A stretch of DNA of 64,000 bases from Ascidiella aspersa (Eukaryota). Shown here in pieces: positions 21,601 to 54,202 of the stretch. The translations under genes and the position numbers were made by a program. Below the pieces are notes generated by a model, which was not told where the DNA came from, ran no database searches, and saw only the letters and a program-made list of their open reading frames with translations. The stretch is from the NCBI GenBank assembly GCA_963924565.1, contig OZ004615.1, positions 16,368,001-16,432,000 on the forward strand, read 5' to 3'. Every line of letters starts with the position of its first letter. Positions within the stretch are counted from its first letter, which is position 1.

Positions 21601-24600
21601 GCTAACCTGAACATCGTTTTGCATTTTGTATGCCAGGAAAAGGGTAAAATTACTCCTAAAACAATTATAATATTAACAAGGATATCATTAAATTGCAGCG
21701 CCATAAATATTTCTCGAGCGATATCACACAAAACAAGGTCCAAGCGATACGATAGGTTTAATTGGATTATTGTATCCAAGCCTTACGAGACTTAATTTTG
21801 TGGCAGAGTTGCGCCTCGCCTACCAGACCCCGGTGCAAGTGAAGACCAGCCAGCAGGTGGTCGACCTCACCCTGAAGAGGAACATCAAGGAGTTCACCGA
21901 CGTTGTAACGTGGAAGGTCATCAAGGAAGTGAGAAGGAGGAACAAGTCGGCTCCCAGCTCCACCACATCCAGCAGCCAGTCGAGCGGATCAAGGTGAGTT
22001 GATGTGACCACTTTAAACGGGATCTAAAGTAGAAGGCGTTTTATAATCAGGAGGGTTTGCCAGAATTGCCGTTGTAGCTTCGTTTGAAGTTTCTTATTAG
22101 ACCATCAACATATTTAGCAACTGTGTAATAATGAGTTTCGACTACCAGGCAACCAGACTGAGATATGTTTAAAATTCATAACCATTAACTAGCAAAAGTT
22201 TCGACAGATCTTGGTAACATCATCCACTAATCAGATGTCCTATATTAATGTTACACTCTATTAAAATGAGGGATTGTTTAGATTAAAACAATTGTGGTAT
22301 TTTCGCACTTTTTAAGTACATTTAAAAAGAGTTTATTGTTATCTTCGCTAAGGTGACAAAGGCAACAGTGAATTGCCACTGGCTCTACCTTATATAATGA
22401 TACACCGCTTAAATATATAACGACGGTGATGTCCACAACTGCTGAACACCGCAAAGCTTGTATTTATTAACAACATTTGCCAAAATGATGTTGGCGAAAG
22501 CGAATTCAGTAAACGTTCCTAGTAGAAAGTATTAACAAACAATTATCGACAATAATAATAAAAAAAATCTGTATGCAACCTCGAGACAAAAAAACAACGC
22601 TTTCATCTTCGCACGATCAAAATGACACAGCACGAATAATTTCGATTGTTTTTTCGACGTAGCTCTTCAAGCTCCAGCAGCGACTCAACAACCGGTGCTT
22701 CCCCCGCCCCAGTGGTTAGCAGCGGCGAGCTGGAGTACGCCCCAGGGGCCGACACCGTCACCCTCCAGTTCCCTCTCAAGCAGGACATGCGCCACTCGTC
22801 GCAGCTCTATCGTCTGATCGTCCGACCCAAGCGAATATTTTCCGCCTCCGCTGAAGAGCAAGGGAGGACCCCTGAGCAACAAGAAGAGGAGGACGGAAAG
22901 GAGCGTCCTCTCGCCAACATCGAGCTCAACGTTATCAACGACACAGGTGAGAAACAAACTAAACACACTAAAATTCGACAAAAAAGTATTTCTTGAACAA
23001 CCATTCAACAAAAAAGTGTTTTTTAAACAACTATATAAGCAGCCTTTGTGGTCGATTGAGTGAATAGGCGCTTGTTGATCAACTGTTTATGTTATTTATT
23101 GGGCGTCTGTGGATGTATTAGACTTAATTTGTATGATGGCCTTTTATTCGCGCTTGTATTCCTATAGGTTTTAATTTATTTCATTTCTACTCTGGCCTGA
23201 CAAAGCACGGTTGTGCGAACGCTTGTCAAGCTTTTAATACAGTTTGTCGTTAAAGAGTGACAACTGATTCCGTTTATTAGGTGTGATAAGTTGTTACACA
23301 CAGCTTTAAAAGGGATCATAATTTGCAGAAGACTTTCGTCGTATCAAGGGCACTGCTTTGACAAACCACATTTCCACCATGGAACTATACAAATTTTAAT
23401 TGCTTCACGCGCATTTAGGTTACCCGGGTCGCGTGCGCAAGCCTTTTGCTGCTTCCATGAGTCCAAACGAGTGTACCGTGTCTTGGGAGCCTCCGGCCTT
23501 CGGTGGACCTGTCGAGGGCTACAGGGTGATTGCAAAATCTGACGGTAAGTTTAAATACGGTTGTTTGGTGAAAATTTATTAAAAGTCCAAGTTTACAAAC
23601 TACTCTAAACCGTGAAAAAATAGATTCTTTTTGCAATTTATAAAGTCTCATAGGGTTTCAGATAAACACTTTGCAATTAATCTGTTTCGGTTAACTTAGG
23701 CTAATATTATCCAAAATTTATATTGTTTTGACTTAATCCACACCCGTGTGTGACAAATGCTGTATTTCCATAAACTGCGCAAGGTGATAAAGAAGGAAGC
23801 CTTAGTATAACTACAGATAAAATTAGCCAACGGAATCACAACGTTTACATTTACCCGACATGTTAGAATAAAAAACTCGTAGAATCCCTATGATTTGTTT
23901 ATTATTTCGTTCACGCGTGGCCTCACATTTTCGACAGTAAGTAATATTACCACACCTCGAAACCATATTCAATTGACGTCACCAGATGCTCCAAACGCCG
24001 AAACGATGGTTGGCCCCGACGAGAGAAAGTTAACCATCACTGGAATGAAGCCCTCCACTAAGTACAGGGTGTTCGTCCAGCCATACAATAAGGTTGGCAA
24101 CGCACGCCCGTCATCCACAGCGACCGTTGTCACACAAGACGGTGAGCGGCTTACTTTACCGGTTGTTTAGTATCTCGATGAAGAAAACGCAATTGATTGA
24201 TTTGGAATACCTTTAAAATGCGTTCAGTTGCCTGACAACTTTTAGAAAAATGCATGTTTTTTAATTTAGAGTAAACCGCATAACGTTATCATGATACACA
24301 CCGTTTCTTATGGTTATTTAAAATGAATAGCAAGATAATTAAAAATGGATAGATGACATTAAAAACTCGCGCGAAATTTCCGCAACTACTATAAACTAGA
24401 TCGGGTAATAACAAAAAACTGCGATAATTAATCAATAACTTGTAACTTTTAAATCCGAATACGCATTTGTCCATTTTTATGGTCACGCCCAACGGATATT
24501 TGTGCCACGCCTACCAGAAACAACGTGGCCGTCCAGTGAAGTAACCCTATAGTAAGGGTTCTTACACTTTTTTTACCGCGAACCCCTACATTTTTTTTGC

Positions 24601-27600
24601 TCCGCGTGGACCACGGTACACAAGAAATTTTCACATATGACGTCACAATCAAATAGACATCAAAATTATGCTGATTTTTCATAAATTTACGTCAGAATAA
24701 AATTTGACTTTCAGAAGCATGCTCATAATTAAAATGGAGTCAAAAATACATTCAGTGCTAAACCGTTTAATATTTAATTATACTCTTTTCTTTGAAAAAT
24801 AGATTACTTCTTGTATATACTAATATTTCAATCCATGGACCCCAGTTTAAAACAATCCATTGACCCCAGTTTAAAACCCCTGCCCTATAGCAATTCCTAA
24901 AAGCTCAATAGTCGACCCAGGCGGAGTTTTAACGTAATTCTCTCCTTCGCTTGTCCGACCCGCAGAAATGAAGATCGAGTTTACGGAGCGCTTCTTCTCG
25001 TTCAAGACCAGCGACAAGGTGGCGGTGATTCCCCTCAAGCGCCACTTCACGCGCGGTTACGCGACCCTGCATTGGAACGTGCGCTGGTGCAAGACGAGCG
25101 ATGCCTCCGACGCTTCAGGATCCGACTCCGAGTCGGAGAGCGACGTAAGTTAAGGCCCGTTTACACTACAGCTGATCTGCATTACCAAGTATTTTAGTTC
25201 GACGAGATCGCTGTTCGGTGCTGAAATTTGCACCAATAAATTAAAAAAAACGATTTTCTGTTTAAAGGCCCGTTTACACTACAGCTGATCTGGGCGTGAA
25301 ATTGCGTTTGTACTATTAACAATGCATAATCACTTTCACGCTTGGAATGGCTTTTGAGAAAAGCGTAAAAATCGCCCAAAGCCTAACTTTTTGCTAGCTG
25401 CACGGAGCTTGAGTTTAGCAAAGCGTGAAACGCTCGCCACAATAGAATTTAAATGTAAATACACTTTGCTCAGATCAGCGCAGCTGTAGTGTAAACGGGC
25501 TTTTAGACCTTCGGAACGAATATAGTTTTATTTTAAATTTATTGGTGCAAATGTCAGCACCGCGCAGCGGTTTCGTCGAAATAAAACACTAGGTAATGCA
25601 GTTGGCGGGATATCTCTCGCTTTAACCTTCTTTGGTTTTAATTTAGTTTGAAGGCCTGTCTTTTTTTGACACCCAACACAACGTAAATTTTGCGGTTTTG
25701 CTTAATTGGAAAACTTGAAACTCCGCAGGGTCGCGGTCGCGATTGGGCCTCGGGCTCCGTGTCCTTCCCGGACGGAGTCGACAGGTCCGAGGTTCGAATC
25801 CCGCTGCAGCAGGCAACGCCTGCACCTGTGTCGAGGAAGCGATCCTTTTTCTGGCTCCACGTGGTCGATCCCAACAAGAAGAAGCGTCTCGCTGCCATGC
25901 GATGCAAGCTGGTGGACGACAAGGGTATGACAAACTCGACCGTTGCACTAACAATACTGGGCAACACTGCTACTTACATGTATCTAATTGTAAACTATGT
26001 TTATAGCTAAGAGAATATAATAACTAGCTTTAACGGGGTACTTGTCTAAAATTTCCCCTTCTGATTGTTTTATACTGGGTAAATAAAAACAATGGTATGG
26101 ATTTTGATACTTGATTTTCTCTAGTAAGCCTACACAGAAAAATGCTGTACTTTTCAAGGATGTTGTATTTTGGTTAAGTTCTTGTTTATTACGTGATGAT
26201 TTTGTCGGCTATTTTCAGCCTACGGCTCGGTTGGTTTCAAGAACGCGATCGACACCCTTCGCGGCGTGTTCGACGCCACCGACGTCCTTGTCTTGCCCCT
26301 GACACGCTCCAACGGCTCTGACGGTCACGTGACTGTGGCGTGGGAGGTCGTGTGCCCCGACAGCGCCACCTATCTGCTGTCGGACGAGAGAGACGGGGTT
26401 GTGGCGCTTGTCGACGGCGACGAGTACTCTCACGTCGCGTTGAAGTTGAGTCCGTCGTGGGTGGACGATTTTCAGTCACGTGACCCGGTTGACGTCACTG
26501 TGGTGCTGACGTCAGCGGGTTTGGGCGCCAAGCTTGATGACGAACACACTCGCTGCGTTGTCAGCCTAGTCCCCGGTGAGGATCTTGATATTGGCAGGAC
26601 TGTGTCGTATTGTTTGTCTGCATCTTGAGGCGACATATTCTACTTTCTTTGTCGTTCTTTCTGTTCAACACCAAGGTTTCTCAACCGTTCGCAGGAAATC
26701 TATTGTGAAGGTAACTTTGAGTTCCCACAGTGCCGATTGCACTATGCGAAGTTGCCATTTCGGTCCGTGTTTGGGACGCAAACGCCAGTTAGATTTCACA
26801 TAGCTGCACCGGTTGAGAACCTGTTTCTTCCTTCTAATTATTGAACACCGGTCGTAATTTACCAACACGTCGGTGGAATTGAAACACTGCATGTCACTTG
26901 TCTGTTGTACAACCCTAATCGTAGGCTGTATGTCACTTAGTGTGTGGCGTAACATACAGCGAGTAACACTACAAGGATTTATTGCGTTACCTAGAAACGT
27001 TTCAAACCTTGGTCTAACCAAATGCGTGTGTGTGTGTGTTAGAATACGATTTATCTAACGTAACAGTCTTACATTTTACAGGCAACTCATAACAAATAAC
27101 CAAATATTGTAATTCACTTCGCCGAACAGGGCAAAGTTACAATTTTGTACTGACAAAAACGTGCAACAAACGTAACACACGTGGCATGACACCCAGCATC
27201 TAATAACAGTTGGAAGGTAATACTTGACCTAATTAGCTGCATGCACCAATACGTGTAAAAAACGATTACTCATATATTTTTACTGTTAATTCGTATTTTG
27301 TCAAGCACACTAATTTCAATTTAAAGAAATAAATTTACATATGAGTTCACAAACTACAATACATTTTAATTTGGAACCATTTTCATTCAACAAACAAAAA
27401 ATATTATTTACCCAAGTTTGCGATATTGTATTGTTTGTTCTCTAGAATGAGTGCAAAACGTAGCAGTAACAAAGTAACTTTTGCGTGTCTTAACAAAATA
27501 ACTTTAGTATCTTGTAAGTTTGTTGTAGATCTGTTTTATATTTTGCTGTCAAACAAAGGTAACCATTTGTTCTGTCAACACACAACAAACAAGTCATATT

Positions 27601-30600
27601 TTTTATTTTCAGCCGAAAGAGGAATCATTTCGATTTTACCGAGGAAGCAAAGTATTAAATGGCCATTTAAAGATGACCGAGTGGTTTTTAAAATCGTCCG
27701 GGAAAATGGAACGTATGGACCCGTTCACCTACAATGGACCTTAGGGGCAAAACCGATTGAAACCTCATCACAATCCACCAGTAGCAGTTCCAGTAGAAGT
27801 TCGTCAAGTAGCGATAAAGAAGAAGCCATATTGGAGGGAATCTTTCGGCGCACCTACGGGGACATTAAAATCCCGAATCAAGAATCCGGCACCGAATTTT
27901 CTATATTCACCAATCCCGAAGTCGGTCTTGACGATGACGTCAGAGCGACGATCAAGGTCATTCCGATGACCCACGGAGTCATAATGAAGGAGGGGTCAAG
28001 TGCTGCGAACGTCAACTTCAAAGTGGAAAGAGGGCGGGTGTCTGTCCAACCAGTGCAGCCTGAAACTACTTGGCCTCCTAAAGATGGCCATCTCATCTTT
28101 GATGTACAGAGGGATCTTGGAACGTACGGTCCCGCTTATTTACAATGGAGTGTTGACCGTGCATCGGAGGGTTGCGATGAAGATTTGTTTGAAAACCTTT
28201 TTCCGCGTAAAGAAGGCGACATTCGAATCGCAAACCGGGAATCGAAAACAACGTTTGGAATTCCAATATCGAAAGATGACTACGGACCTCCAGACGATAC
28301 TGATTTTAGACTTCACATAACTCCTGTTACAAGAGATTTGACTTTGTCTGATGATTCTCATGAAGTTTTATTCACCATCAAAAAACGTTTGCCGCCAGGT
28401 GAGCTGGGATTCGCAAAACAGACCTTCGTATATAAAACCCACGAAACAACTGCGGTTATTCCAATTGTAAGGGAAAACGGTTCAGGCGGAGAAGTTTCCG
28501 TCGAGTATTTCGTAAGGGGCGACACTGCGTTAGTGGGTGAACATTACACCGAATCCTGTTCACAGGGAGTGGTTTTGTTTGAGGATGGACAAACCGAAGG
28601 AAAAATAACTTTGGACTTGGTTCCAGAAGCACGATACAGAAACCCGGTCAAGCTTCTGATCGAACTCGGAGCCACAACTGGTTTTGCTGAAATCGGTTTG
28701 TACGAAACCGAAGTAACTCTCCTACCAACTTACGTCGAACCTCCTGGCGTTTTGGAACTGGATGATGGTTCTGATCTTGAAGCTTGTGTTAAAAATAACA
28801 GTGTTATTGAAATTCCAATTAAGAGGAAGGAAGGTGTACAGGGTACGGTGTCGGTGGTTTGCTCAACTGTTGATGATTCAGCAGTTGCTGGAACTCATTT
28901 TAAGCCTTTGCAAGAAAAGGTTGTATTCGAAGATGGAGAGACAGAAAAGAAAATAGACATTGAATTAGTGCAATCCAAGTATCGTAAGAAGCTGGAGTTT
29001 TCTGTTCTATTATCTCAAGAGGAAGGTGGGGCAACTTTATCTCCTGTGTTTCAGAAACGCATTGTGCTACTTCCAACGTATACAGAACCACCTGGAACGT
29101 TTGCTCTTCCAGATGTAGACAGCTCTGCTCTTCAAGTCAGCGCCCTTCATGACAAAACATTTCCATTGACAATTAAGCGAACTGGCGGAGTTGGCGGAGA
29201 CGTATCAGTACATTATTTTACAGAAGACGGAACTGCAATTGCTGGGGAGCATTTTAAACAAAAAAGTGGCATCTTGGTGGTAAGCGACGGAGAAACGGAA
29301 CAAACTGATGCAGTTGAACTCATCCCTTGTCAGTACAGAGAACCAAAGTATTTCTACGTTAACTTCGACGATCCAAAAGGTGGTGCTGAGTTGAAGGATT
29401 CGCAAATGAAAGTGATGCTATTGCCAACCGATAAAGAACCCGCTGGAATTCTCGGCTTACCTGATGAGGAATCCCTCTCTGCAAACGCACTTGAAGACGA
29501 CACTATTGTTATACCTATTGTAAGAACAAAAGGCGTTGGAGGAGAAGTGAGTGTCAACATTAAAACGTCTGATGGCAGTGCCAAAGACGGCGTCCATTAC
29601 ACAGGAATTGACAAGACCATAACTCTAAGCGACCGCGAAGACTTATTGCAGCTTCCGATTGAGTTGCACCAACCTCTGTACAGCGATCCAGTTGACTTTA
29701 TTGTGGAAATTAGCGAACCATCAGGTGGTGCTAAATTAGCTGACAACAAGATGGTGAAAGTTGTTCTTCATCCAACAGAAAGAGGAACCATTTCGATAAC
29801 ACCTAAGAAACAGAGCGTAAAGTGGCCTTGCAAAGATGATCAGATTGTCGTGGAAGTTCTACGAGAAAATGGAACATACGGACCCGTTGATATCAAGTGG
29901 ACGTTGGATGAAAAGGCAAGAAAATACCCTTTAAATTCAAGCAGCAGTAGTTCCAGTAGTAGCAGCTCATCATCAAGCAGTGAAAATGACGATGGTAACC
30001 TTAAAACGTTTTTTACTCAAACTAATGGTGACAAGACAATTCCTGACAACGAATCAAGTGTCAGCATCAACATTCCGACTAATCACGACGCGGAACTTTC
30101 TGAAGACCTCAGAGTAACCCTCAACATTTATTCTATCACCAAAGGCGTCACCATGAAAAAACATGGAAAGTCTTCAAGAATTGATCTTAAGGCCGAAAGA
30201 GGTAAAGTGACCATCGAACCCACTTCCCCAAACATTACGTGGCCTCCTACAGACGGCGACGTTACATTTAAGGTACAGAGAAACCTGGGAACGTATGGCC
30301 CTGCTCATCTACACTGGAATGTTGACTGTGACTCAGAAAGCTGTGCAGAGGAACTTATCAATAGTATCTTTACCCAGAAAGAAGGGGATATCCATATCGC
30401 AAATGGAGAATCTAAGACCACGTTTAACATTCCTGTTTTAAAAGATGACTACGGACCTCCAGATGATACAGATTTTCGACTTCACATAACTCCTGTTACA
30501 AGAGATTTGACTTTGTCTGATGATTCCCAAGATGTTGATTTTACCATCAAAAAGCGATTTCCGCCAGGTGAGCTGGGATTCGCAAAGCAGACTTTCGAAT

Positions 30601-33600
30601 GTAAAACCCAGGACGAAGCCACTGTAGTGATTCCAGTTATAAGGGAAAACGGTTCAGGCGGAGAAGTTTCCGTCGAGTATTTTTTAAGGGACGACACTGC
30701 ATCAGTGGGTGAACATTACACCGAATCCTGTTCACGAGGAGTTGTTTTGTTTGAGGATGGACAAACCGAAGGACAAATCACTTTGGACTTGGTTCCAGCA
30801 GCAAGATACAGAAACCCGGTCAAGCTTTTGATCGAACTCGGAGCCACAACTGGTTTTGCTGAAATCGGTTTGTACGAAACCGAAGTAACTCTCCTACCAA
30901 CTTACGTCGAACCTGCTGGCGTTTTGGAACTGGATGATGGTTCTGATCTTGAATTTTGCGTTAACGATAACAATGTTTTGGAAATTCCAATCAAGAGGAA
31001 GGAAGGTGTACAGGGTACGGTGTCAGTGGTTTGTTCAACTGTTGATGATTCAGCAGTTTCTGGAACTCATTTTAAGCCTTTGCAAGAAAAGGTTGTATTC
31101 GAAGATGGAGAGACAGAAAAGAAAATAGACATTGAACTACTCCAATCCAAATATCGCAAGGAGCTGGAGTTTTCGGTTGTTCTATCGCAAGAAGAAGGTG
31201 GGGCAACGTTATCTCCGGTGTTTCAGAAACGCATTGTGCTCCTCCCAACGTACATAGAACCACCTGGAACGTTCGCTCTTCCAGATGTGGACAGCTCTGC
31301 TCTTCAAGTCAGCGCCCTCCATGACAAAACGTTTCCATTGACGATTAAGCGAACTGGCGGGGTTGGAGGAGACGTATCAGTACATTACTGTACGGAAGAC
31401 GGAACTGCAATTGCTGGGGAGCATTTTAAACGAAAAAGTGGCATCTTGGTGGTAAGCGACGGGGAAATGGAACAAACTGATGCAGTTGAACTTATTTCAT
31501 GTCAGTACAGAGAACCAAAGTATTTCTACGTTAATTTCGACGATCCTAAAGGTGGTGCGAAGTTAAGGGATTCGCAAATGAAAGTTATGCTCTTGCCAAC
31601 TGATAAAGAACCGGCTGGAATACTAAGCTTACCTGAAAAGGGTACACTATCTGGAAACGCCTTAGAAGACGAAAGTGTTGAAATACCAATCACTCGCACT
31701 AAAGGTGTTGGGGGAAAAGTCACTGTAAATGTTAAAACGACTGATGGCAAGGCAAAAGACGGCGTACATTACGAGGGAGTAGACGGGCAAGTTACATTGG
31801 CAGATCGGGAAAACTGTGTAAAGCTGCCAATCACCCTCCTTTGTCCTCTCTACCGCGATCCAGTGGACTTTACGGTGGAAATCAGCGATCCATCAGGAGG
31901 CGCACTACTCGCCGATAAAAACAGTCAATTGACGGTCGTTCTTACACCAACAGACACCGAACCTCAAGGCATGATAACGTTCGACGAGGGCGAAACTGGT
32001 GAAATCGCTGCCGATGCTAACGCCAGCAGTGAGGTCTCTGTTCCTGTTAAACGTATCGATGGTTGTGGCGGAGACATAGTGGCAATGTACAAGACAATTG
32101 AAGGGACAGCTACAGCCGGGAAACACTACGAACCAGTGAAAGGCTTGCTCACCATGAAAGATCGCGAGGAGAAAGCCACAATTGAAGTTCCTATACTCCT
32201 TGACCAACACCGCGACCAACTCGTGTTTAAATTGGCACTATTTGGCGATCCTGAAGACCCGGATAAAATGCAAACCAGCAAGATCGTTCTCGTTCCCACT
32301 GACCTTGAACCGACCGGTCGCATTGTATTACCTAGCAAGTTGGAGGCCAATGCCAATAACTCCAGCGTTATGAACGTGCCTATAAGTCGTGTGGACGGAG
32401 TAGGCGGTGAAGTGTCGGTCCATATCCGCACAAGTGACATTACAGCGCTGGAAAATGTCCACTATAAGCCCATCGACCGAACGGTAACGCTTGGAGACCG
32501 ACAGAGCGAAGTACAGATTCCGGTCGAATTACTTCCAGCCGTGTACCGAAGTGATCTGGAATTTTGCGTCGAAATATCGCAACCTTCCAACGGCACTGAG
32601 TTCAGCGAGTGCAATAAGACCACAGTCACGCTCGCGCCAACCGATACTGAGCCAGAAGGAAGGGTTGTGTTTAAATCTGATGACGATAATGAGGGCGCAA
32701 TATCGCGAAACGCAAATGACGCAAGTGAAGTCGTAATTGAAGTACGGAGAGTGGAAGGTTCGGGCGGCACAAAACAGGTGCAATTTCGCACAATAGACGG
32801 TACCGCCAAGGACGGCGAGCATTACGAGGGTCAAGCAGGGACCCTAGAATTAAAGGATCGAGAAGAAAGCGCCGCGCTTTCGATTCCGCTCGTGCACGCC
32901 TCGTACCGCGACGATTTGGAGTTCGAGGTGGCAATTTTGGACGCGGGCGCTCAAGAAAGGCACCTCACAGTCAAGCTTGAAGCGACGGACACCGAACCGG
33001 CGGGCGAGCTAGTTTTGCCTAAAGAAATCCAAGTACAAGCTAACATGGAGGACAGCAACACATTTGAACTGCCTATCAAAAGAGTCGGCGGAAAGGGCGG
33101 AGACGTCTCAGTGGCCATCAGCACTACGGACGGCACAGCCATCGACGGTGTTCACTACAAGGCCATTGACGGACGGGTGACGCTTAAGGACAGACAAGTG
33201 GACACTAAGCTATCCATCACCCTGCTCCCGGGAACGTACCGCGAGATGCTACAGTTCTTCATCGAGCTAAAGGACCCCGTTGGCGGATTTGTTCCAGCCA
33301 CTCACGCCAGGTGCAAAGTTGTGCTGCTTCCCACTGACAAGGAGCCTTCGGGTTACCTGGCTTTTGCCAAATCTGAGGAAGTTCCAGAAGTGCGCGCGAA
33401 CGCCCTGGAGCACGAACGCATTGAGGTCCCTGTGAGGCGCTTCGCTGGCCTCGGCGGCACCGCAACCGCGCGCTACAGGACTGTCGATGGAACAGCAAAG
33501 TCCTGGGAGCATTTCGAGCCGAGCCAGGGAACAATCGCGTTGGGCGACCGAGAAATTTCCGAAGAAATATCTATAACTCTATTGCCGGCCAGCTACCGAA

Positions 33601-36600
33601 AAGAGCTGCAGTTCCACTTGGAAATCGCAAACGACGACGACGGTGCGGATGATTGCAATGATGCGTCGTCGAAAATGCTGATCAAGTTGGATCCAACCGA
33701 CACTGAACCACCAGGAGAGGTAACATTGCCTGACGACGACGAGCTTGAAGTGAGTGCCTTAAGCTGCAACAGCCTTGGAATACCAATCAGACGCAAGAAG
33801 GGCCTGGGCGGGGAGGTCTCAGTGCGGGTTCGAACCCGCGACGGAACGGCCAAGGACGGGCTGCATTACACCGGCATCGACCAGCGAATCGTGCTCGACG
33901 ACCGCCAGGAGTTTTCGGAGGTTGTGGTGCCCCTGTTGTCGCTTCTATATCGCGACAGACTCAGTCTGGTTGTCGAGATTCTCGAGCCGGAAGGCGGCGT
34001 GACGTTGGGTGATGTGCAACACTCGTCGGTTACATTTCTACCGACCGATGACGAACCCACAGGTCAGTTGACGCTATGCGGCGATATGGACGGCGACGTC
34101 GTCGACGTGGACGCCACAACTACCAACATGGCCGTTGTGCCGGTTCGGCGCACTGGTGGAATGGGCGGGGGGGTATCCCTGCCTTATCGGACTAGGGACG
34201 GAACCGCCAAGAGCGGTACACATTACAAGGCAACCGATGGTGTTCTGACGTTAGGCGATCGCGAAACCGAAGGGAAGATATCGATTCCGCTTATCCCAGC
34301 CACGTACCGCGACCAACTTGAGTTCTACCTAGACACAGACGACGACAGCGGCGCCCAAGCTTGCGTATCCGTGCTTCTGCGGCCCACGGATAACAGTCCA
34401 AGGGGCGATCCCGCCTTCACGACAACAGACGGCGAGATAACTGTGGACCCCAAGAAAGTAGACCTCGTCGAAATACCCCTGAGCCGAGTTGGCGGTTTCG
34501 GCGGAGAACTCGACGTGACCGCGATTACTTGCGACGGCAGCGCCCTGGCCGACGTGCACTACAAGCCCCTGTACTCGGTCGTTACCTTTCCGGACGAAGA
34601 GACCGAATCTTCGATTTCTGTGCAACTGTTGGACGCCCAATACGACCAACCTTTGTGCTTCGAGGTGCACATAAACGGCGCCGACGAGCCTTCCGAGAAA
34701 CTGAAGAAGCTCAAAGTCAACCTGCTACCGACCGTGGTCGAGCCCCCGGGGCGTGTGATCGTCGATGCTTCATCGCCCGATGAAGGACTGAGGTTGGACA
34801 CCGAAGGACTTGACACGATATTTGTTCCGCTGACACGCGTAGAAGGGAGTGGCGGGGAAACACACGTCGATTACGAGACTAAGGATGGCAGCGCAAAGGC
34901 AGGTCAGCATTACGACCCCGTTCGGGGACGGGCAACGTTCGGTGACGGACAGGTCGAAACTGCAATCGACATCCCGCTCATATCTTGCTCGCGAACAGAG
35001 CCTCTTGATTTCACCATTGCTCTGCGCGGCGAAGACAACGATAACAATGACGGCGGTTATGAAGAGACGCGCGTCGTTCTGCTGCCCAACACTGAGCCCG
35101 AGAGCCACGACGTCGACGTTGACGCTACCTGCGTCGAAGCGTGCGTCTTGGACGACGGCGTCGCGCGCGTAACTGTGCGTCGCGGTGACGCAAAGTGCGC
35201 CAATGCCATCCCGATTTCGTACAAGACGAAGAACGGCAACGCCAAGGCAAGGAAGCATTATCAGGCGACGAGCGGGCGCGTCCAGATCCCATCGGGCGGC
35301 GATCAATGTTGCATCGAAATCCCGCTTAACAAACTCGACTACCGGCGCCCTGCCAACTTCTTTGTGCAGGTTAAGACGCAAACCAAAGTAGTGCGCGTTG
35401 TCGAGGTTGTTCTTCGTCCCACTGTGGAAGACCCGCCCGGCTTTCTCGAGTTCACGGCCCCTACTTTCGCGCACCCAGCTTTCACAAGCGACAGCGGCAA
35501 GCCGACCCTTTTGCTGCCGGTTGAGCGTACCGAGGGCACGGGCGGCGAGGTGTGCGTCGACTACTTCACACGCGACAACACAGCAATCAACGGGCAGCAT
35601 TACGAGGAAGCGAGCGGCGCGCTGACGTTCGGCGACGGCGAGTCACGCAAGGAGCTTGCCATCGAGCTGCTGCCATTCGACAACTACACGAAGGACGTGT
35701 CGTTCGTGGTCGAACTGGGGCTAGCGACCGGCGGCGCCGAGGTGGAAGGAAACTACGAGACGGAGGTGACTCTCCTGGCGCCGCTTGACGAAAACGACCC
35801 AGGTGTGCTTGGGTTCGAGTCGCAACGCACAGTTGTGTCCTCAACGCGGCTGCAGCGTGAATCAGACCGACCGGTTACAATCCAGATCCCAGTGAGGCGC
35901 ACACTCGGTTGTGGCGGCGACGTGAGTGTCGACTACTTCACGCGAGACAACACAGCCGTCGCCGGGCTCCATTACGCCGAGACTGAGGGCGAGCTTGCCT
36001 TTGCTGGTGGCGATGCCCGGCAACACATCGAGGTCGATTTGCTGCCAGGTGCGCACTTCGCCAAGCAGTGCTCTTTCACCGCGGAGCTGGGTGGTACGAC
36101 CGGAGACGCCGAAGTGGGACTCTACGAGACCGAGGTCGTACTGAACGCGCTTAAAAGGCGAGATTCGTCGAGCAGCTCCAGCAGTTCTTCGTCTTCCAGC
36201 TCCTCCGGTTCATCCGACAGTTCCTCGAACTCATCGGACGACGAGGGCGTTTTCAGGAAAAGTTCCCGATCAAAGCGGGTCCTTACCAAGACCAGCCAGA
36301 GGTCGGTGAAAGTGCTTCAGATGGAAGAGAGAACGACCACCACGACTTTTCAGACTATCGAGACCTTGGAAACCCAGTCGGCCTCGAGATCGGTCGTCGT
36401 ACAGCAACAAGAGCTCGACTTGGGTAAGATTAACAACATTGTCTGTTAAATGACCTTTATTTTGGTGGGGAACGAACGCTCGACAATGTACCTTTTCAAT
36501 TGCCTCTCTTCTTATTTGAATATGCCATTTAAGTTGCGGGACTTCACGTCAGCTTTTTTAAAATATTCCTTTTAAATCTAACTATCACAATCGGATGTAT

Positions 36601-39600
36601 AGAGAACGAAAAACCAGTAACCTATGTTGAAGTACGGCATTAAACAAAAATGATCCTCCTTAAAATATTACGCAGAACTGTAAAAATATATGGATAATTG
36701 TTTCAAAACGTTGCTACAATGCGCCCTACAACTGTAAAAGAGTTCAATATAAACTAATTTCTTCACGTTGTAAATCATGACTAACACAAACTTCGCAAGA
36801 CTATACAAGAAAATTGTGCATTCCTGAAATATTCAAATAACAAGGCCTTGTAATTGCCGATGAAATAAGTTATTTGAATTGCTAAATCATGGCTATCAGA
36901 AAATGGCAAGAAACAAATACCCAATCCCGACGTTTTTCGTGTGGGGCCTTTTAAATTGACCGGGGAATGAGGTATTTAAATTGCTGGGGTCGACTTTTAT
37001 AATAAAAGCGTTCGACTTTTATAATAAAAGCGTTCGCTTTTCCCGCAGGCGACGACACAGGAGGAGAAATCGGTTTCCCAGAGGAACAGCAGTCGGTTCG
37101 CGCCGGAGTGGACCGCGAGGCAGCCGTCACGGTCGCGCGCTCTTACGGGTTCAAGGGTCAGGTCACGGTCGACTGGTTTACGCGCGAAAACACGGCGGTC
37201 GAGGGCGTCGACTTCGTGCAGTGCGAGGGCCAGGTGACCTTCGCCCAAGGTCAAAAGATAGCCACTGTACACGTGCCGTTACTCGACGGAAGAGGAAATC
37301 GTGAGAGGGGCAGTTCATCCGAGAGGAGTTTTATCGTCGAAATGGGTGAACCAGATGGCGACGCCACCATGGGTCGGTATGAGACCAACGTGGTAGTGGT
37401 GGATCCTGATACGTCACAGTCCCCGCGGAAAGGTTTGCATATTTAAGCTTTTTGACAGGATACGTTGCACTGGTTACCAAGATTTAAAGTATATCGCCGA
37501 AACTTTGCCATTACGAATCGTTTTAGGTAGTGTTTGTGTTGCACAAGTGTGAATATAGTCCATAAATTAGAGTAACAATAAATACGCTGTAGCACAGGTC
37601 CTCTAAAACGATAAATACATTTTTTGTATACTTTTCTGTCTTTTATCCGCGGACACAACTGTGTCATAAAATACTATTTGGTGCTTGATTTATGTTTGGT
37701 ATTTGGTCTAAATTTACCACCTATAGGCTTTGGTGTCAGCGTTTATTTTATTCTTTCGTTAACATCGATTTTGTTTCGCAGGCAAACATCGAACCTTCGG
37801 CGGCAGAAAAACATGATTACCTGCTCGCCCTTTTTCACTAATTTTCAATATATATTTCTTACACTAACTCGAAATGTTCCTTAAATAGCTTACTAATCAA
37901 TATTCTTTTGTAGGATGTTTCTATATGAACTTTGTAATCTGTTCTCTACTTATATTTTCTTGCTTGCTTTACTAAGCATCTTTTCTTACAGCCTGTCCCC
38001 AGAAAGTCAACTTTATTTGAATACTTTGTCTAACTTTGAATGTAAAAAAAACTAACAGTTATATCGTCAGGGTAAACCTGGCTAAAAATCGGCATGTGAT
38101 GCCGTAACTCTAACTTGTTTGTCGTTTGTAACGCAAAGTTATTTAACATTCCGGGCTGCTTACAACAGACAAGTGACGTGACTTTACATATAACACTTGA
38201 CTGACGTGTATTGTTGCTCGCTCTTTCTGTTAACGACTCACACAAAATTCACGGCAAAAACACATTCTGAATCCCTGACTGGTGGTTGTCCCTGTTTCTC
38301 GATGGTGAGGTCTCTTCTACAATCTTGTTCCCGCTGTCGACTGGTATTTGTTGACTTATGTTTGTTTCAATTTATTATCGTCCGATAATATCTCGAAAAA
38401 TGGGTGTCTTGTATCTGTGTCTGGCATTGTCTTTTTACCGAGTCGGAAGCATTGTGGGTTAAATTTTCCAAGTTTTAAAGATCCATTGTTCTGGGTAAAA
38501 TGATACAAACGATTAAACATGTAAATATAAATTTAAACAGCTTTGAAGACATATCTTAGGACAATGTAGAAATCTTAAACACGTCTTTGACTATTTCAGC
38601 TCGCTTGGTGGCGCCCAAGAACGTGTCGGTTGACGTCACAGGAGCGACAAGCTTTAAGGTCAATTGGGAGCCGCAGGAAGCAACAGTTCACGAGTACTTG
38701 GTAGGTTAACGTTAGGGGTTTTGCAGTTACAAACGTTTTTTGCAGTAATAAAATCGAGTTCAAAATATGTTTTGCGTCATAACAGGACTACAACTAACGG
38801 TGTTTTTAAATTCATTGCTAATTCCGACAGCAAGTTACTGAGGATTCATATCTTAAAGCGTTTAGTGATTTTTAAACAGTTGGTGACATAGTTTGCTATT
38901 TAAATAGAAAACGTAATAACTCTTAATAAGAATATCAAAGCCCATACAGAAGTAGGTATCATTTTGAACGTTTCGAATAACTCTTATTATTGCAAAATTG
39001 TAATAAATTATCTTATTAAAATGTTTTAAATCGTGTTATACAAATAGGTCTGGTGCCAGTAAAAAGTACAAGCCGGCGTTCAAATGTTCATCAAACATGT
39101 CGCTGACAGTTCTTTCGCCCAAAATCGGAAACTATATAGAGCAGTCAGTTCAGTGAAATGGTACACACAACTAATAGGATGTATTCCGCATAAAAACGTT
39201 TCTATTTGCAAGCGTACATCAAATCCGTAACACTGTGTAGCCGATGACAAACTGAATGTGTAAAATATGAAGATATCTCCTCGCCCTTACACGTAAATGA
39301 CGACAATGGCTTCAAATGGGAGCAAATATTTTTTAGGCTTTCCCGTCAAAGTCAGTCATTAATAAGTTCTAGTCTTTTAAAGAATCATTCTATTTGAATA
39401 AGAGACTGATGATGCCTTATTTTGGGGCGAAATATATTTCTCTTTCAAAGGACTAGAACTTATTAATGACTGACTTTGACTAAGACCAAAGGAAAGTCTA
39501 AAAAAATTCACTGTGTAACCGCGTCGCTAATCGTTGCACAGGTTTCGTACAAACGAGCTGGAGACGCCGATGAACCTCACCGCTACACAGTGCCACCTAG

Positions 39601-42600
39601 CGATCACGAGTTCAAGGTCGACGGCCTTCTGCCCGAGTCGGCTTACGCGGTCGTGGTGTCAGCGCTGGGCGAAGGCGGCCAACAAGCGTCGAGCGATGTG
39701 ATCGGCTGCAAGACCCCTGGGAAAGGTAAATTACATAACTGTTTTCTACCAACCCGATGGTAGAAAAGCTGATCTTGCAATGCAGGATATTTGCAAGTTG
39801 TGAATACCAGACAATCCAGACATATTTTGTTTGTAATTCAAAATTTCTTAAAAGCGGCACAAGTTTTCTTAAGAACGCTTCTCTTAAAACCGTATTGTTT
39901 TATAAGCTTTTGAACACAAAAGTATATATTAACTATTTTATCGGCGAGTTCAACACATTTCATGAAACGATTATCTAATTTTTAAGCACATATGGCAGAG
40001 CCAAAGAAGTTGACATTCAGCAAGACCCTACAGTGTTAATTAAAACGATATATAAAGCGTCACTCTAGTTGCCCACGCTACGGTTTTTGTCGAAGAGTTT
40101 TTTTTTCGACAACGTTAGACCAAGATGCCAATTGTGTTTCAAACGCAGTTCCTGGACCTCCGAACAGACTTGCCTTCCAAGTACTATCCCCGACCTCGTT
40201 ACATTGCTCGTGGGGTGAACCTGCCGAAACGAACGGGCTTATCACCGGTTACGAAGTACTGTACAGGCCTTCTGGTAAGTGTACCTTTGGAAACATTTTT
40301 ATTATTGTAGGTGGTGTACAGGGAATTTCCTTTTTTGAGTATTGTTATATTACGTGCTTAGGAGATAATGAAACTCGGGATCTAGTAGACATAGCGGTGT
40401 AACCTACGTATTTCCAGGATCGCTCTACAAGCATATTGGAAGGCAGATTATTATTTTACAATAAGTTGTAATTCAGCTGAAGGCTCTGCACCTCTGTTAA
40501 ATATATATTGGTAAAAAAACTGAAGATGATATAAGCTCGTATTGAAATGTCTTAATAAAGATGATGTCGATCAACTCGACCTTATTGGGTTTGCAATTCA
40601 TTATCAAGCTACATTACAGATTCGTACAAAGTGTACCCAAATATTTGTTGGTGTAAAAAATTAATGTAAGGGTTCACCAAAAAACTGAAAAAAACAAATA
40701 ATGTTGTAGATCAAATAAAATAGTTCATTGAAACAACACAAGCTTCTTCACACATTTTCAGTCGGCATACTTCAACTAAATATGTCCTGTTTCGATTGCA
40801 ATAAAATTGCACGAAGCCTTGAGCCACCCTTGACAAACAAAACAACAAAAATACATGTAATCTTCCCAGACGACGACCCCAACAAAGACGAGCCGCCGAT
40901 CATGGTTCGCATCCCAGACGGACACTACCGCTCCTTGCTGGTGGAGGAGCTTCTTCCGGACACCTCGTACGTGTACAGCGTGCGCGCCCAGAACAGGGCC
41001 GGCACCGGGCCGCCCAGGGACGCCACCATGAAGATCGAGAGGGTCGGATCCCGGCCTCCTTCAGGTAATTATGCCGAACCGAGTTTTTGTGGTGTTTGTT
41101 TTATCAGTGCGTTAGCTTTAGTCATCAGTTTTTTTATGTTGGCATATAGGTTTTAATTTTCAAAGGTAAAGATGCAATGAAGTTTGTTTATAGTTATTGT
41201 GTTTTTGGTAAGCGCTGGTCAATTGTCGTTATTTGCCTGGATAAAGCGCTACCTTGATTATCACACTCTCAAAAACGTCGCAAATATAAAAAAAAATCAT
41301 TATGATCAGAATACGCCTCAAATGACTTCATCTAAATTAATAGGTTTAGAGCTTATGGTGAAACTAAATCTTACCTCATGCCTATTTGAGATTTTAAATT
41401 TTAAATGTAGCTTTGTATATGTAAACAATTAATTGAAGATTGTTAACTCACCCTAAACGACAAGCTTTTTGCGCAGCCATCTTTCTGGACGAGGAAAACA
41501 TGAAGGCAGTTCAGGAGCAAATCCGCTTGGAAGAAGCGGTGAGGCTTGCCAACCGAAGCATCAGCAGCAGCAGCGACGGACAGTCGCACGACGGGGGAAC
41601 CAAGGTATATCGAAATCTCTTGCAATGTCATTGTATCACAGGTTGCAGCTGAAATTCAAAACGCGTTGAAAGTGTAAAACAGTTGAAAGCTAAGTATCGA
41701 TAAGTTTTAGAATGGCTGAGAAAACAAACTTAAACCGCAGTGAACCACAGGTTATTTTACGTTCCTATTAAAAACTTGGAAGTTGTAGTATGTTTGACCT
41801 AATTTGTTTGGTGCACACCCGTATAAGTAGCTGCCGTATGTGTGTGTGTGGCAGGATACACTTCTTATATACTCGTCAATATACGCTAGTTAGTCTAGTT
41901 CAGCACTGTTTATAAATGAACTTGATATGCGGCTCACATTGTAAACACATTTCGGCTATGTGATTCTATATTTAGAAAAAAAATTTGCCGACAAAGTTTG
42001 TCAAAATAATTCGTCTAAAAGTTCAAGACGATTTTCAACACTTTAACGCTGTTGAGATCGAAACTTCAAAACAATATCTACAGTTTCTCATAAGGTTTTT
42101 TAATATTTTTGTATGGCAGATAACGACGACAGTTCGTCATGTCGTGCCACAACCGCAAAGTTCAAGCTCTGCGAGCAGCGCGACAAAGACAAGGGTTACG
42201 AGGTAGCTTTGTAATTTTGTGTGTTTATGCCAATTTTCAGGGTCTTGTATAGCTTGTTTTTATGGTTCGATTAGCTAGAAAAAATATATTTCATTTATTT
42301 ATTGAAGTGTTTTTGTTAAAGTCTAAAATAAAATCGGGTATCGCCACCATTTGATTTGTTCCGCAAAAATACAGCCAACAATCTAAACATTTTTGACAAC
42401 CTAAAAGTATAGTACTCCAAGTTCACCAAAAGCACTGGTATAAGTTTTAAAACTTTGCTGAAAGATTTTACGTCGTGCTTAATTTTTGTCGCCCAAAACC
42501 GCCCGAAAATCCATTAACTATTTCCTACATATAAACGCTGGCGTGTGTTACTGCGTTTCGCAGATACATTCACAAAACGGGACAACGGGAGCCGGAGGTT

Positions 42601-44790: not shown

Positions 44791-47700
44791 GTAAGTTCAA
44801 AAGTGTTTTTTCTGTAATAGTAGTTTCAGTTGAATACAAGGGGTGACTTAATTAAAAGTCAAATTCGTGAACTCCGTCATAACATATTCCTCAAAGGATT
44901 GATAAGAAAAATGTGAAGTTTATGTAACTGTTTTACATATTTTTTCAACGATAGTAAACAACATCCCTCAAACTAAACATTTTAACATGTTTGACTGGAC
45001 AATTTATTGTCAAACAAACCTATAGAAATAGGAGTTCAACTTAGCCATATAGACAGGAGGTGGCCTAGTACGGTTACTGTGTGCTCGGCAGCGCAAGTAA
45101 ATTCGATTTCCCACAATTAAAAGCGTCCAAGATCCACGCGATTCATCATTCCAAAACGCGGCTCCCTTCTAGCTCATCGTGAAAACGCACAGCGGCGGCC
45201 CCACGCGCTATAAAGAGCAGTCCTTACACGTCTCTGTATTAGTGATGTCACCGCACCGAAAAACATTGTTTGCGGTTCGCGCAAAAGTTATGCCCGCTAT
45301 TTTAGGCAGCGTCAGCGAGCGATTTCAACACATAGCTCCACACCTTCCCTTTGGTGAAACCGCAACTAGCGCTTTGAAGAATCGGGCCTCCCAAAGATTC
45401 GGGCCTTTTAATACCGATCTGTGCCACTGGTGATTATTAGGATCCTTTTAAAAAAACGGTACCGGCGATTATCGGGCATTGCTGGAGTGGCGTTCTTGCG
45501 CAAATATTCGTTTTCGGTTGTATTGGAACTGAAAATGGCCAAATATGGGGTCGTCCAATCGCGAGAAAAATCACTTGCAGATCAAACTGAGCGGGGCAGG
45601 TGCATAATTAATGTTGTTGTGATTGGCCTCTAAGCACCGTTGACATAATTCGTTTCTCTATGGTTGCATATCGTATGACAGGGGTGTAATGTCCGTCTTA
45701 ACGAACGATATGAGTTCAAATAGCGAAATATCCAACTAAACAACTAATATTAAATTCTGTTTAAACGTATTTATGATAAAAGATAATTATTTCCCCGACG
45801 CTTTTCCAAACAAAGCTATGAACAATTTCCAAATTGATTACCTATTTTAATTTGCCATCGAATCGTATCGTGTATTGTTTTTATTTTAACCCGGTATTAC
45901 TGTTTCGATATTTAAAGGGTAATGAAATTAATTAATAGTGACACAGGTTATGAGCAATTCCTCCCTTCCATTTTCCATACTATCGTAGTCTTTGAATTTG
46001 AACTCAAGACGTGTCAATTTATAAATAGTTATGGATAGCCCGAGTAACAGCAAATTAATTAGCGCTGACCCGCCCCAATTTCGTGACGCTTTCGCTACAC
46101 CCCGCAAAGCCCGCCCAGGCACTGCGGCTACCTACCGCGATGACTTTTGCATAGCAACGCTATCGCTGGTCGACATATTTATTCTGTGGCCACCAGCTAT
46201 ATCCGCCTTTCCACGACAGAAGGATCGGCATACGTAGGAAGTCACAATTAAGTGCCGCAATCGAAATGATTTGGTGTGCTGTGTGCTTAATGATAGGGAA
46301 GGTGAAAGTCCGATTCCTGTCCAGCACCTTCGATTTGCTTATTGCGAGTTTGCGTTGTGACGATGCACTTTTGCGAGGCATTTCAATGCAAACCGCTTAT
46401 TCTGGCGAGCCCAAGTGGTTGTGTCAGAATTAGGCTTTGATCGAAGGACTGATTTTTTTTCTCGCGAGTATTCGCGTTGCACTTTTTCTGCTTTTAAGCC
46501 ACTGGCCGCCTTAAACGAACATCAATTATACGCATTTTGGAATCTTAAGTGTCGGTTGACAAAGTTGTTTAATTGCCAAACGAGGCAACGGCCGTAGATT
46601 ACTGGATTTGCATTTCCTGGTCTTAAACTAATATGCCGAATATGTGGGCTGCTTGATTGGGAAAAGTTTTAAAGGATTTAAAAGTGATAAACAACATCCG
46701 ATAAAAATATCCGCTTATTTAAAGTAACAATGCTATTTCTTTTTAGTTTTGTTTTGTTCGGCAAGAGACTATGTTTAAAGCATGTTACATCACTAATCCA
46801 ATCCTAAATTTTCGATTGCGTTATTCTTGTGACGTTGCAGTGTACCCCAATGTCAAATTTTGTCAGTCGTTAATTTTGTTGGAGCTTATGTCAAATTTCG
46901 TCAGTCGTTTATTTTAATTAGAACATTTAACTGTTAATTTGTCTTTTTCAAAATGAAAAAACGCAAAACTTGTGTGGTCAAAACTTGCCGGGGGTCTTCA
47001 CTAATGTGATGCAATGCCTCGTTTTAAAAAAAAGTATTTCGTTCTTTGAAAAGAAAATTTTGTTTATAAAGGAAAAATTTAACAAAGCGTTAATACCAAC
47101 GGGAACATCTTTCAAAGCATCTGTTATCTTCGCTTGGTAATTGCGTAATTCGCCGCAATGATGTTGAAATGGCTGGTGTTTGTAAAAAGATGTTGACAAA
47201 GCCGAATTGAATGTCAAAGTTTCATAACAGCTCGTCCGGGTTCGGCTCGACATTTGTCCCAATTTTAGAATCTTTTGTTTGGCGAGTTTTTGTCGTAATG
47301 TCTTACCTAAAGTCCAAAGGTCGTTCTTGAAGGTTGTACGTTTGCACGCACACGGGTATTACACGATAACAAAATTTTAGGTAAACCTGTAACGTTCCAG
47401 TTATCATAAAATTGATTTACTTCTAATCAAACAAGAATATTCCTGATATTGTTGGAACAGGCGCTCAGACGATTCACTTTTGATTGATCAAACGTTTAAT
47501 AACAGGTTACGACAATCACCAAGACTTACCGAACGACCACGACGGAACGAAGGTTGGAGACCACCTCGGGAATGAAAACGGTACTGCTCACCGAAGACGG
47601 GCAGCAGATTGAAAATCAAAGGCACCAGCAGCAGTAACTGCTTGCGATTGGCACGGCTACAAAGGCCGCCAAACCACGCTGGACACAACAACCTGGCCGC

Positions 47701-52231: not shown

Positions 52232-52789
52232 CTAAAAAGATAACCGCATTTGTAAGAGCGTCGGGCCAATACCAAGGAACTTTTCGCGTTCGTCATTCGT
52301 GTGGCTTTATTGGGTTTGCGAAATTAAAACAATAAAACAAAGCCTTCCCTGTTTGCACCCAAAACCGTTATGCAGCTGGTGAAGGTTCAGTTTATTATGT
52401 GTTTAAAACGTTATGTTTAAACATGAGGCCTTTTATGTGAAGGCAGCATGAGTTATAGTCTGCGCGACCAAACCCCAGCCAGCTATTATTTTGAAACAAA
52501 GTTTTGGGTATATACACTAACCCTGGCCTTTTCTGTTAGTAAGTGTAACAAGCGGCTAAATTTTAAGCTAACTATTGTATTTACACGCAACACAACCTCT
52601 TGTATATCGTTTTCACCAAAGAAAAGGTAACTTAGTTTTGCATAAAGAAGCCCTGCTGGAAATGTTTGTAATGGTAACAACCCGGGGGATGCTACGAGAT
52701 CGCTTATCGCCTAGAGAAGCTTTACGCACCAATTCGGTCGCTTTGCATGAAATCGAGTTAAAACAAAGAAACCGCAACGGACCACCAAC

Positions 52790-54202
52790 CTTATGACAGC
52801 GGACGCAGTGTGACATCGTTTGCTTCGCAACACTAGCAGGAATCAGAGTGGAGAGCGCTCGAATGCATTTCGGGTCTTTCGATTCAAGTTTATCCTTCAG
52901 CATGCGTTTGAGGTCCTTGGCACTGCAGCCGTCCAGAAACTGGTCGAGGCGGACGGCGTCGTTGGTCAGAGACTCGACCTTGGGCGTTGGGCTGACGGAT
53001 GAGTTTGTTTCGGCTGTGGAGAGCGACTCGGTTTCGCTGCGATCATTGACGCTGAGCGAGCTGAGATCTCCAATGACCCGCGAGCTTTTGGTTGACCGAG
53101 ATGGTTTCGGAAAAAACTGAGGCTCTTCGACCCTCAGGGGACTTGGCTTTACGTAATGGGTGTGAAAGCCCGCGTGCTCGCCCAGAAAGAGTTCATCCGC
53201 CAAAGGATCGACAGGAGGAATATCAAACTGGTCTGCGCCGGTGACGTAGTCGGATACAGCCGGGCCCTTTACGGGTGTGAAGATGTTGGAGCTGCTGATG
53301 TCGGAAAGGTCGCTACCGCTTGTCAGGCGCTGCTTTCGGGGAATCACCGGGGTGAATGCCGACTTACGGGATCCATCGCTCGAGACCAGAGGCGATGGGG
53401 TCTTATGCTCGGATGGGTAAACTGCCGGAACCCGGATGGGGCTGACCTGGGAGCTGTGTGAGTGAAACTTGGTCGGGCTTCCGAAGGTGAAGCTCGCCGA
53501 GTCTTCAAGCGGCGTGTCAGGGGTCATCTGGATGCGGGGAACTTGAAGAGTCCTGGGCTTCTTCAGGATGCCTCTCTTGGCGGAGGCGGACGACTCCGTT
53601 TCGCTCACATCCGCGTCCGACTGGGAGGTCTTCCGCCACTTGGCATTCTCGTAGTCGGACTTATTAATGTTGCTGGAGAGGTGCAGCGGGTCGTAGTAGG
53701 ACTGACGCCCGTAACTGTCACCGACATAGTAGTAAGAGTTGGAAGACTCTTCGCCGTACTTCAACACGGGAGAAGTAGGAGACGGCGTCATGGACACAGT
53801 CGAAGGCGCGAAGGTCTCGGTGTAGCCTTGCGTCTGCTGGGCGTAGCCCCTCTGCTGGTGAATCGCCTCGTCATAGCTCGAAACACTCGAGGACGCGCCC
53901 TTCCTTTGCTTGAACTGCTGTCGCTTGTTGGCGGCATCCGGCGTGCTTGCGTAAATCTGGAACGCCTTGTCCGATGTCATACTCTTGAGCGGCGAGTTGG
54001 CGCCGTCGTCGCTGGACGCAGTGGTCGAGTAGCCGCTTTCGCACACGTCGTTGTTGAAGGTGACCTTGCGTTGCTCGAGTGACGTCTGGCTGCTGTGCCA
54101 GCGGGGCTGCTTTCCGTTCTGCGAGGATTGCTGGCTGATCAGGTGGTTAATCATTACTTGACGGTCTCGCAAATTGCCGTGCATCACTATACTGATATTG
54201 GC
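52790..54202 (-). CDS. Antisense gene, large exon: Ser/Pro-rich disordered region + start of Cys/His domain (HCVRCHK); first ATG at 54184
   Basis: ORF 52613-54187; - strand acceptor tttttttcaacag at 54203, donor aag|gttggt at 52789; GC-rich coding-like composition. Confidence 0.85.

Follow-up and report, generated by a model that had tools for sequence, protein, structure and literature searches.

What protein does an exon of 8,811 nucleotides (nt) serve, in a gene whose other exons are all short, and is it left out of some transcripts? The question is raised by a stretch of 64,000 nt from the ascidian Ascidiella aspersa (assembly GCA_963924565.1, contig OZ004615.1, forward strand positions 16,368,001 to 16,432,000), referred to below as the window. 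An earlier note on this DNA had suggested that the exon can be skipped as a whole, under the control of Rbfox, and that the long and short isoforms act as a molecular ruler. We find that the exon encodes tandem Calx-beta repeats, and that its gene appears to be the ascidian orthologue of the integrin beta4 chain. In the reading that we consider probable, the giant exon is the core of a block of three exons in the beta4 tail that is either included or skipped, so that the membrane is separated by either 24 or 50 repeats from a pair of FN3 domains that likely binds a plectin-like linker, and the block is an adjustable tether. Positions of the features are collected in Table 1.

The giant exon is real coding sequence under purifying selection. 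It is bordered by a pyrimidine tract and AG at the 5' end and by GTAAG at the 3' end, and the whole of it lies in a single stop-free frame of 3,034 codons (27345-36446), which bears out the length and the 1-1 phase given to it earlier. The statement that every other exon is shorter than 400 nt also holds, since the other 79 exons of our gene model measure 82-384 nt, with a median of 166. When the assembly was compared with other runs, 31 of the 40 differences shown lay in the exon (122 further ones are not shown). They comprise 16 synonymous and 15 non-synonymous changes and no stops, a ratio of non-synonymous to synonymous differences (pN/pS) of 0.29 (P=0.0007). None of the 12 insertions or deletions shown falls in the exon (14 further ones are not shown). 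These values, together with a ratio of non-synonymous to synonymous substitution rates (dN/dS) of 0.21 between the two copies of an internal six-repeat duplication, are the basis for concluding that the frame is under purifying selection. By contrast, the symmetry of the exon is no argument for regulation, because 36 of the 78 internal exons of the gene also have a length divisible by three.

Pfam recognises 20 Calx-beta stretches in the exon; with a profile made from the repeats themselves the count is 24. The repeats are followed by a poly-Ser stretch and then by a Thr/Gln-rich linker. The GC content climbs along 27000-36423 from about 0.43 to 0.60, the duplicated 5' part of the exon being richer in AT.

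The gene was modelled by alignment to Ciona and Styela proteins, with manual placement of four junctions near the 3' end. The resulting model of 80 exons is free of stops and covers the DNA from about 28.7 kb upstream of the window as far as position 47637. It encodes 7,424 amino acids (aa) without a signal peptide; the signal-peptide exon was not located in the model, and the Ciona and Styela orthologues have a signal peptide. The upstream exons, on the same strand, have the features of an integrin beta chain: Pfam matches to PSI, to a vWA/I-like domain, in which the metal ion-dependent adhesion site (MIDAS) is intact, to EGF repeats and to a beta-tail domain, and a single transmembrane (TM) segment. 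The ectodomain is 67.6% identical to that of Ciona and 57.0% to that of Styela. After the TM segment there is a predicted tail of about 6,670 aa, and the whole chain contains 50 Calx-beta and four FN3 domains. The 24 constitutive repeats are matched in order and one to one by 24 repeats of Styela and 23 of Ciona. The modelled intron at 6891 has a GC donor.

In the available text of Ewan et al. (2005; PMC1145181), the Ciona chain Ci_beta5 grouped with beta4 and was named the beta4 orthologue, and it is on this source that the orthology of the Ciona chain rests. According to the same text, its authors were unable to establish whether Ci_beta5 possesses the extended tail, and saw only short exchanger-like open reading frames (ORFs) downstream. 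A search of longer proteins with the Ciona ectodomain gave nine matches, all of them vertebrate integrins of beta4 architecture and the best one named beta-4; the design of this search excludes beta chains of normal length. In the block-skipped model the cytoplasmic part contains Calx-beta followed by FnIII-1,2, as in integrin beta4. No FnIII-3,4 pair was found after a connecting segment: the FN3 pair is followed by a low-complexity tail, and the other two FN3 domains are single and lie upstream. For this reason the gene appears, as judged from its sequence, to be a beta4 orthologue with a different tail and not a canonical beta4.

A protein search with the middle of the giant exon (7,992 candidates scored) returned mostly bacterial arrays, at 21-30% identity, and the Ciona orthologue. 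The latter, under the name GPR98-like, was the only animal match recognisable by name, and it led to Styela clava LOC120348632. The Ciona RefSeq entries concerned (XP_018671880-882 and XP_026695066) are labelled 'GPR98-like' yet carry integrin, Calx-beta and FN3 domains, their models being cut short at the 3' end; the label is a misnaming. Identity with ADGRV1/GPR98 was considered and rejected, there being no Pfam match to EAR, GPS or the seven-transmembrane (7TM) domain in the scanned ORFs of the window or in the orthologues.

The location of the block within the protein follows from the terminal FN3 pair. In the block-skipped model, the final constitutive Calx-beta together with the FN3 pair aligns without a break, at 121-152 bits, with the Calx-beta, FnIII-1 and FnIII-2 domains of three vertebrate beta4 chains, including those of Xenopus and fish. 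For the last FN3, identity to FnIII-2 is 45-50% (92-107 bits), and the score with FnIII-3 or -4 is at most 66 bits. Searches of the PDB with half-domains give a less clear picture; for the first half of this FN3, the preferred match is FnIII-2, aligned as one stretch. Two arginines of the pair align to R1227 and R1283 of Xenopus, and are 56 residues apart like the human pair R1225/R1281 (PMC4452579); we infer that the Xenopus and human pairs are equivalent. In the accessible portions of two papers (PMC4452579, PMC4388270), plectin is described as binding beta4 primarily at FnIII-1,2, with R1225 and R1281 both required. The ascidian FN3 pair is likely to bind a plectin-like linker. Because this pair best matches FnIII-1,2, the block would appear to sit between the membrane-side rod, ending in the last constitutive Calx-beta, and the candidate plectin-binding pair. 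A position in the connecting segment of beta4, between FnIII-2 and FnIII-3, was also considered and is ruled out by the alignment, in which the block precedes FnIII-1,2.

Plakin repeats give 28 matches on 3 contigs of the genome. The plakin (plectin) repeat loci, whose products are candidate partners of the tail, are C1:7745168-7768392, C4:3724270-3742782, C4:30078808-30079308 and C6:10778383-12543801. Our literature searches found no relevant paper on ascidian hemidesmosomes, and nothing usable on insert variants of vertebrate beta4.

The unit of alternative splicing is likely to be a block of three exons (26219-26575, 27613-36423 and 37049-37432), which are skipped together by joining 25924 to 38600. 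The earlier expectation of a long and a short isoform therefore stands as likely, with the difference that 3,184 aa are removed by the block and not the 2,937 aa of the giant exon alone. The joining of 25924 to 38600 gives a modelled protein of 4,240 aa. This junction, which leads from the residue before the block directly to the FN3 exon, is made by one of the four Ciona RefSeq isoforms (X4) and by four of the seven from Styela; the block sequence is included in three of four and three of seven, respectively.

Among the sequencing runs, X1 and X2 behave as DNA and X3 behaves as RNA, and the raw reads of run X4 are too thin (depth ~1 or less). Contigs of run X3 end at 25895, 26575, 27612, 36422 and 38599, which are the positions expected of splice branches, and one GT..AG joint, 38699>39541, is seen in this run. 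A 4.9-kb contig (31503-36422) has 30 extra letters that do not match the intron, as would result from splicing to the following exon. It contains no internal joint. The X3 depth is about 52-59 on exon 25729-25924, 65-95 on the downstream exons and 26-30 on the giant exon, half of the latter being matched by intron depth. These depths fit a majority of block-skipping transcripts, roughly two thirds.

The size of the giant exon varies between lineages. From a list of 150 representatives, the 11 best new ones were examined, and six single ORFs from other assemblies were found to carry the same type of exon, with 18, 13, 12, 11, 11 and 8 repeats. Five are ENA or Logan contigs and one is an NCBI entry filed under a bacterial metagenome-assembled genome (MAG). 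The ends of five of these ORFs match units 48 and 49, and in the sixth unit 49 is matched twice; two of the six begin with the same residues as the giant exon. In a quick tree, which omits five short N-terminal units and most of the bacterial, Ciona and Styela units, 71 of the 73 units fall in two clades together with the giant-exon units and the block units of Ciona or Styela (SH-aLRT, a Shimodaira-Hasegawa-like approximate likelihood ratio test, 100 and 97). These clades are separate from the constitutive and the bacterial units. One of the ORFs has its own duplication of seven repeats, at 99-100% identity, which is either recent or an effect of assembly. Because they are uninterrupted over 3-6.7 kb, the six ORFs are likely to be giant exons at the same site, with a length specific to each lineage. 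The giant exon thus appears to grow and shrink by internal tandem duplication, separately in different lineages.

A further five candidates (P0135, P0136, P0140, P0141 and P0142) were set aside as unrelated arrays without the end motifs. The NCBI entry (P0147, MEL6740612.1) is filed as a protein of a Planctomycetota MAG, on a contig of 3.1 kb, but its repeats cluster with those of the ascidian giant exon, and it is likely to be host DNA in a bacterial bin.

An AlphaFold model of a two-repeat piece consists of two β-sandwiches in series, with a mean predicted local distance difference test (pLDDT) of 87.6 and a predicted template modelling score (pTM) of 0.64. Its best structural matches are the CBD12 of NCX/CALX and the beta4 Calx-beta domain 3fq4 (root mean square deviation 1.4, TM-score 0.91 by target). 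In 19 of the 20 regular repeats of the giant exon the E-F loop contains at most two acids, where NCX1 has DDDIFEED. The acidic E-F loop ligands that mark a Ca2+-binding Calx-beta domain of the NCX CBD1 type are thus largely missing from these repeats. Because these acids are mostly missing, the regular repeats are likely to be structural, having mostly lost the acidic Ca2+ loop.

On the basis of these observations, we propose that the block exons are included or skipped together, which would give a tail with 50 or 24 Calx-beta repeats. The repeats would stack into an extended chain. The longer tail would approximately double the distance from the membrane to the candidate filament-gripping site, and the block would act as an adjustable tether that sets the distance of intermediate filaments from the basal membrane in a hemidesmosome-like junction. 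The rise per Calx-beta domain is about 4-4.5 nm, and an extended rod would measure about 100 nm in the short form and about 200 nm in the long form. A variable spacer in the beta4 tail is a concrete form of the ruler idea, which would survive recast in this way.

Several points weigh against this proposal. No splice joint of the block is displayed (15 of 48 joints are shown, all of them deeper than these would be), and therefore the skip 25924>38600 is read from contig ends and from the arithmetic of depth bins. Run X3 is a single run that is not recorded as RNA, and contig depth is a poor measure of expression. The X3 contig 25895-26575 passes unbroken across the acceptor at 26219, so that the inclusion joint 25924>26219 is not visible. 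The introns within the block have X3 depths of 14-37, and much of the block RNA may be unspliced. Three depth values of upstream exons (53-62) are upper bounds, and become 16-45 if those introns carry a depth of 14. The RefSeq isoforms are computational predictions, and the reads behind them are not visible; moreover, the Ciona models are cut short and the Styela block has only 419 aa. As for the domains, the second half of the last FN3, taken by itself, matches FnIII-3 no less well than FnIII-2, the pTM of 0.64 leaves the angle between repeats uncertain, and the quick repeat tree has 116 columns only.

An unlikely alternative is that the block is spliced as described, and that the repeats form a multivalent docking platform or a Ca2+-sensitive scaffold and not a spacer. 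Across genomes, the exon keeps its first and last repeats in a conserved order, and the four atypical repeats and some constitutive ones retain 4-6 acids in the E-F loop, as such a function would suggest. The number of middle repeats, however, is free to vary (8-24), and from genome to genome their identity is only about 30-40%, as would be the case for an element that sets length; the regular repeats are without the acidic loop.

It is less probable again that block-containing RNA mostly yields a truncated tail. Here the intron 37433-38599 (or 25925-26218) would be retained and a stop reached before the FN3 pair, and the switch would uncouple the integrin from the filaments instead of making the link longer. 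The weak donor at 37432, the X3 depth of the intron behind it and the contig that is unbroken across 26219 can all be read in this way. On the other hand, the intron depth may be unspliced precursor, all three block exons have phase 1-1 and are in frame with the FN3 exon, and Styela isoforms X1-X3 continue from the block into the FN3 pair.

The skip originally suggested, of the giant exon alone (26575>37049) and under Rbfox control, fares slightly worse and is improbable. It would preserve the frame, giving a modelled protein of 4,487 aa, and if rare could have been lost from the contigs. However, bin arithmetic gives an unlisted X3 depth of 388+-68 for the donor at 26575 and of 315+-68 for the acceptor at 27613, each corresponding to one joint contig of depth ~13, so that the donor depth is fully matched at 27613. 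The X3 intron contig begins at 26546 and not at 26547. Both observations are what one would see if 26575 joined only to 27613 and no path led on to the G at 37049. None of the 11 Ciona and Styela isoforms makes such a skip. The three (T)GCATG motifs upstream of the giant exon are all present as described, but they are not enriched and lose their value as a sign of regulation: against the 45 introns of the window, intron 26576-27612 has two TGCATG where 0.41 are expected (P=0.064) and three GCATG where 0.96 are expected (P=0.073; Bonferroni 1.0).

Finally, an artefact, either an error of assembly or a different Calx-beta gene, ADGRV1-like or bacterial, caught in the model, can be given almost no weight: the Ciona label GPR98-like and the dominance of bacterial Calx-beta arrays in loose searches would suggest it, but long contigs of runs X1 and X2 span both ends of the giant exon, there is no 7TM or EAR match, and the units cluster with the block units of Ciona and Styela and not with bacterial ones.

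Table 1. Features of the integrin beta4-like gene, numbered from the first letter of the window unless stated otherwise.
Feature	Position	Strand	Remarks
Upstream part of gene	contig ~16339285 onward, before window	+	PSI, integrin vWA with MIDAS, EGF repeats, beta-tail, TM and Cys-rich juxtamembrane segment, Calx-beta 1-9
Constitutive exons 34-67 of 80	528-25924	+	Calx-beta units 10-24, two single FN3; collinear 1:1 with Ciona and Styela
Stretch removed by inferred skip 25924>38600	25925-38599	+	9,552 coding nt, 3,184 aa, 26 Calx-beta
First block exon	26219-26575	+	357 nt, phase 1-1; encodes a single Calx-beta (unit 25); Ciona X1-X3 have the orthologous exon
(T)GCATG motifs	26888-27243	+	TGCATG 26888, GCATG 27184, TGCATG 27238; present, not enriched
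Giant exon	27613-36423	+	8,811 nt coding for 2,937 aa; Calx-beta units 26-49 (24 repeats in tandem); AG/GT, phase 1-1
Internal tandem duplication, six repeats	28067-31903	+	best-conserved parts 28067-29731 and 30236-31903, 85% DNA identity
Last block exon	37049-37432	+	384 nt, phase 1-1; encodes a single Calx-beta (unit 50); weak donor; orthologue in Styela X1-X3
Intron after block	37433-38599	+	X3 depth ~37, above giant exon, behind weak donor; if retained, in-frame stop within <=15 nt and FN3 pair lost
Four exons, terminal FN3 pair	38600-41064	+	best match FnIII-1,2 of vertebrate beta4; both arginines aligning to plectin-binding ones
Exons of Gln/Ser/Thr-rich low-complexity C-terminal tail and stop	41477-47637	+	no FnIII-3,4 found

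A candidate microexon of 18 nt (43135-43152, AG/GT, phase 0-0) lies within intron 42676-44511, which contains eight GCATG where 1.7 are expected (Bonferroni 0.02). In Styela, isoforms have a 7-residue insert at the position of the microexon, present in five of seven. The microexon would thus seem a better candidate for Rbfox control than the giant exon. The literature searched held no relevant paper on ascidian Rbfox.

It is worth adding two observations on the remainder of the window. On the reverse strand, 52616-54217 is a Ser/Pro-rich ORF of 534 codons that belongs to a convergent gene; it has a Cys/His motif close to its end and no match in Pfam or the protein atlas. Short intron repeats in high copy are found at 24600-25495, 38924-38985, 39244-39486 and 40500-40560, with summed X1/X2 depths from thousands to hundreds of thousands, and are probably small mobile elements.

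If the proposal is true, a tail of 6,700 residues with a splice-controlled folded insert of 3,200 residues far exceeds the known range of integrin tails. It settles the question raised in 2005 on the tail of the ascidian beta4 orthologue, and corrects the GPR98 mislabel. It also allows a direct test of whether a molecular spacer determines how far filaments lie from the membrane in adhesion junctions, and it bears on the origin of the vertebrate hemidesmosome, FnIII-1,2 appearing to be shared and FnIII-3,4 not. Already known are the short isoform, which is in RefSeq under wrong or empty names, and giant alternative exons as a kind. Our literature search, from which subscription journals were mostly outside coverage, found no description of an integrin tail with multiple Calx-beta domains or of the giant exon.

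The Calx-beta fold is shared with ADGRV1/GPR98, the sponge aggregation factors and CBD1/CBD2 of NCX, and long tandem arrays of it occur in ADGRV1 and the sponge factors. Those arrays are extracellular and acidic, whereas the ascidian array is cytoplasmic, as judged from topology, and most of it is without the acidic loop. The ankyrins offer a precedent for giant alternative exons; in the available text of PMC5422562 these measure 7.8 kb in vertebrates, 13.3 kb in Ciona and 27.8 kb in Drosophila. The likeness is that an exon of many kilobases makes a giant isoform and that its size depends strongly on the species (PMC5422562). The ankyrin exons are there described as sharing only a Ser/Glu bias between species, whereas the beta4 exon encodes folded repeats, belongs to a transmembrane receptor and is likely part of a three-exon block.

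The closest relatives are Ci_beta5 of Ciona and LOC120348632 of Styela, direct orthologues with 23-24 collinear constitutive repeats and the same skip junction. They differ in that the Ciona models end within the first part of the giant exon, and the Styela block has three repeats against 26 here. Most integrin tails have fewer than 50 residues, and vertebrate beta4 is the textbook exception, with a tail of about 1,000 aa and one Calx-beta domain. With this chain of the hemidesmosome (ITGB4) the ascidian protein shares the beta ectodomain, the TM and Cys-rich segment, the absence of NPxY after the TM segment, the order of Calx-beta and then a FnIII-1,2-like pair, and the two aligned arginines. 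It differs in having a tail of about 3,490 or 6,670 aa with 24 or 50 Calx-beta domains, two extra single FN3 domains within the array and a giant alternative block, and in that FnIII-3,4 was not found. We suggest, as a tentative possibility that we hold with less conviction than the tether itself, that ascidians have a hemidesmosome-like anchor in which the part of the long linker is played by the integrin, a chain of up to 7,400 aa. The length of its cytoplasmic rod would be adjusted by splicing in the individual animal (24 or 50 repeats) and, between species, by duplication within the exon, and the vertebrate beta4 tail would be the collapsed remnant of this rod or its seed.

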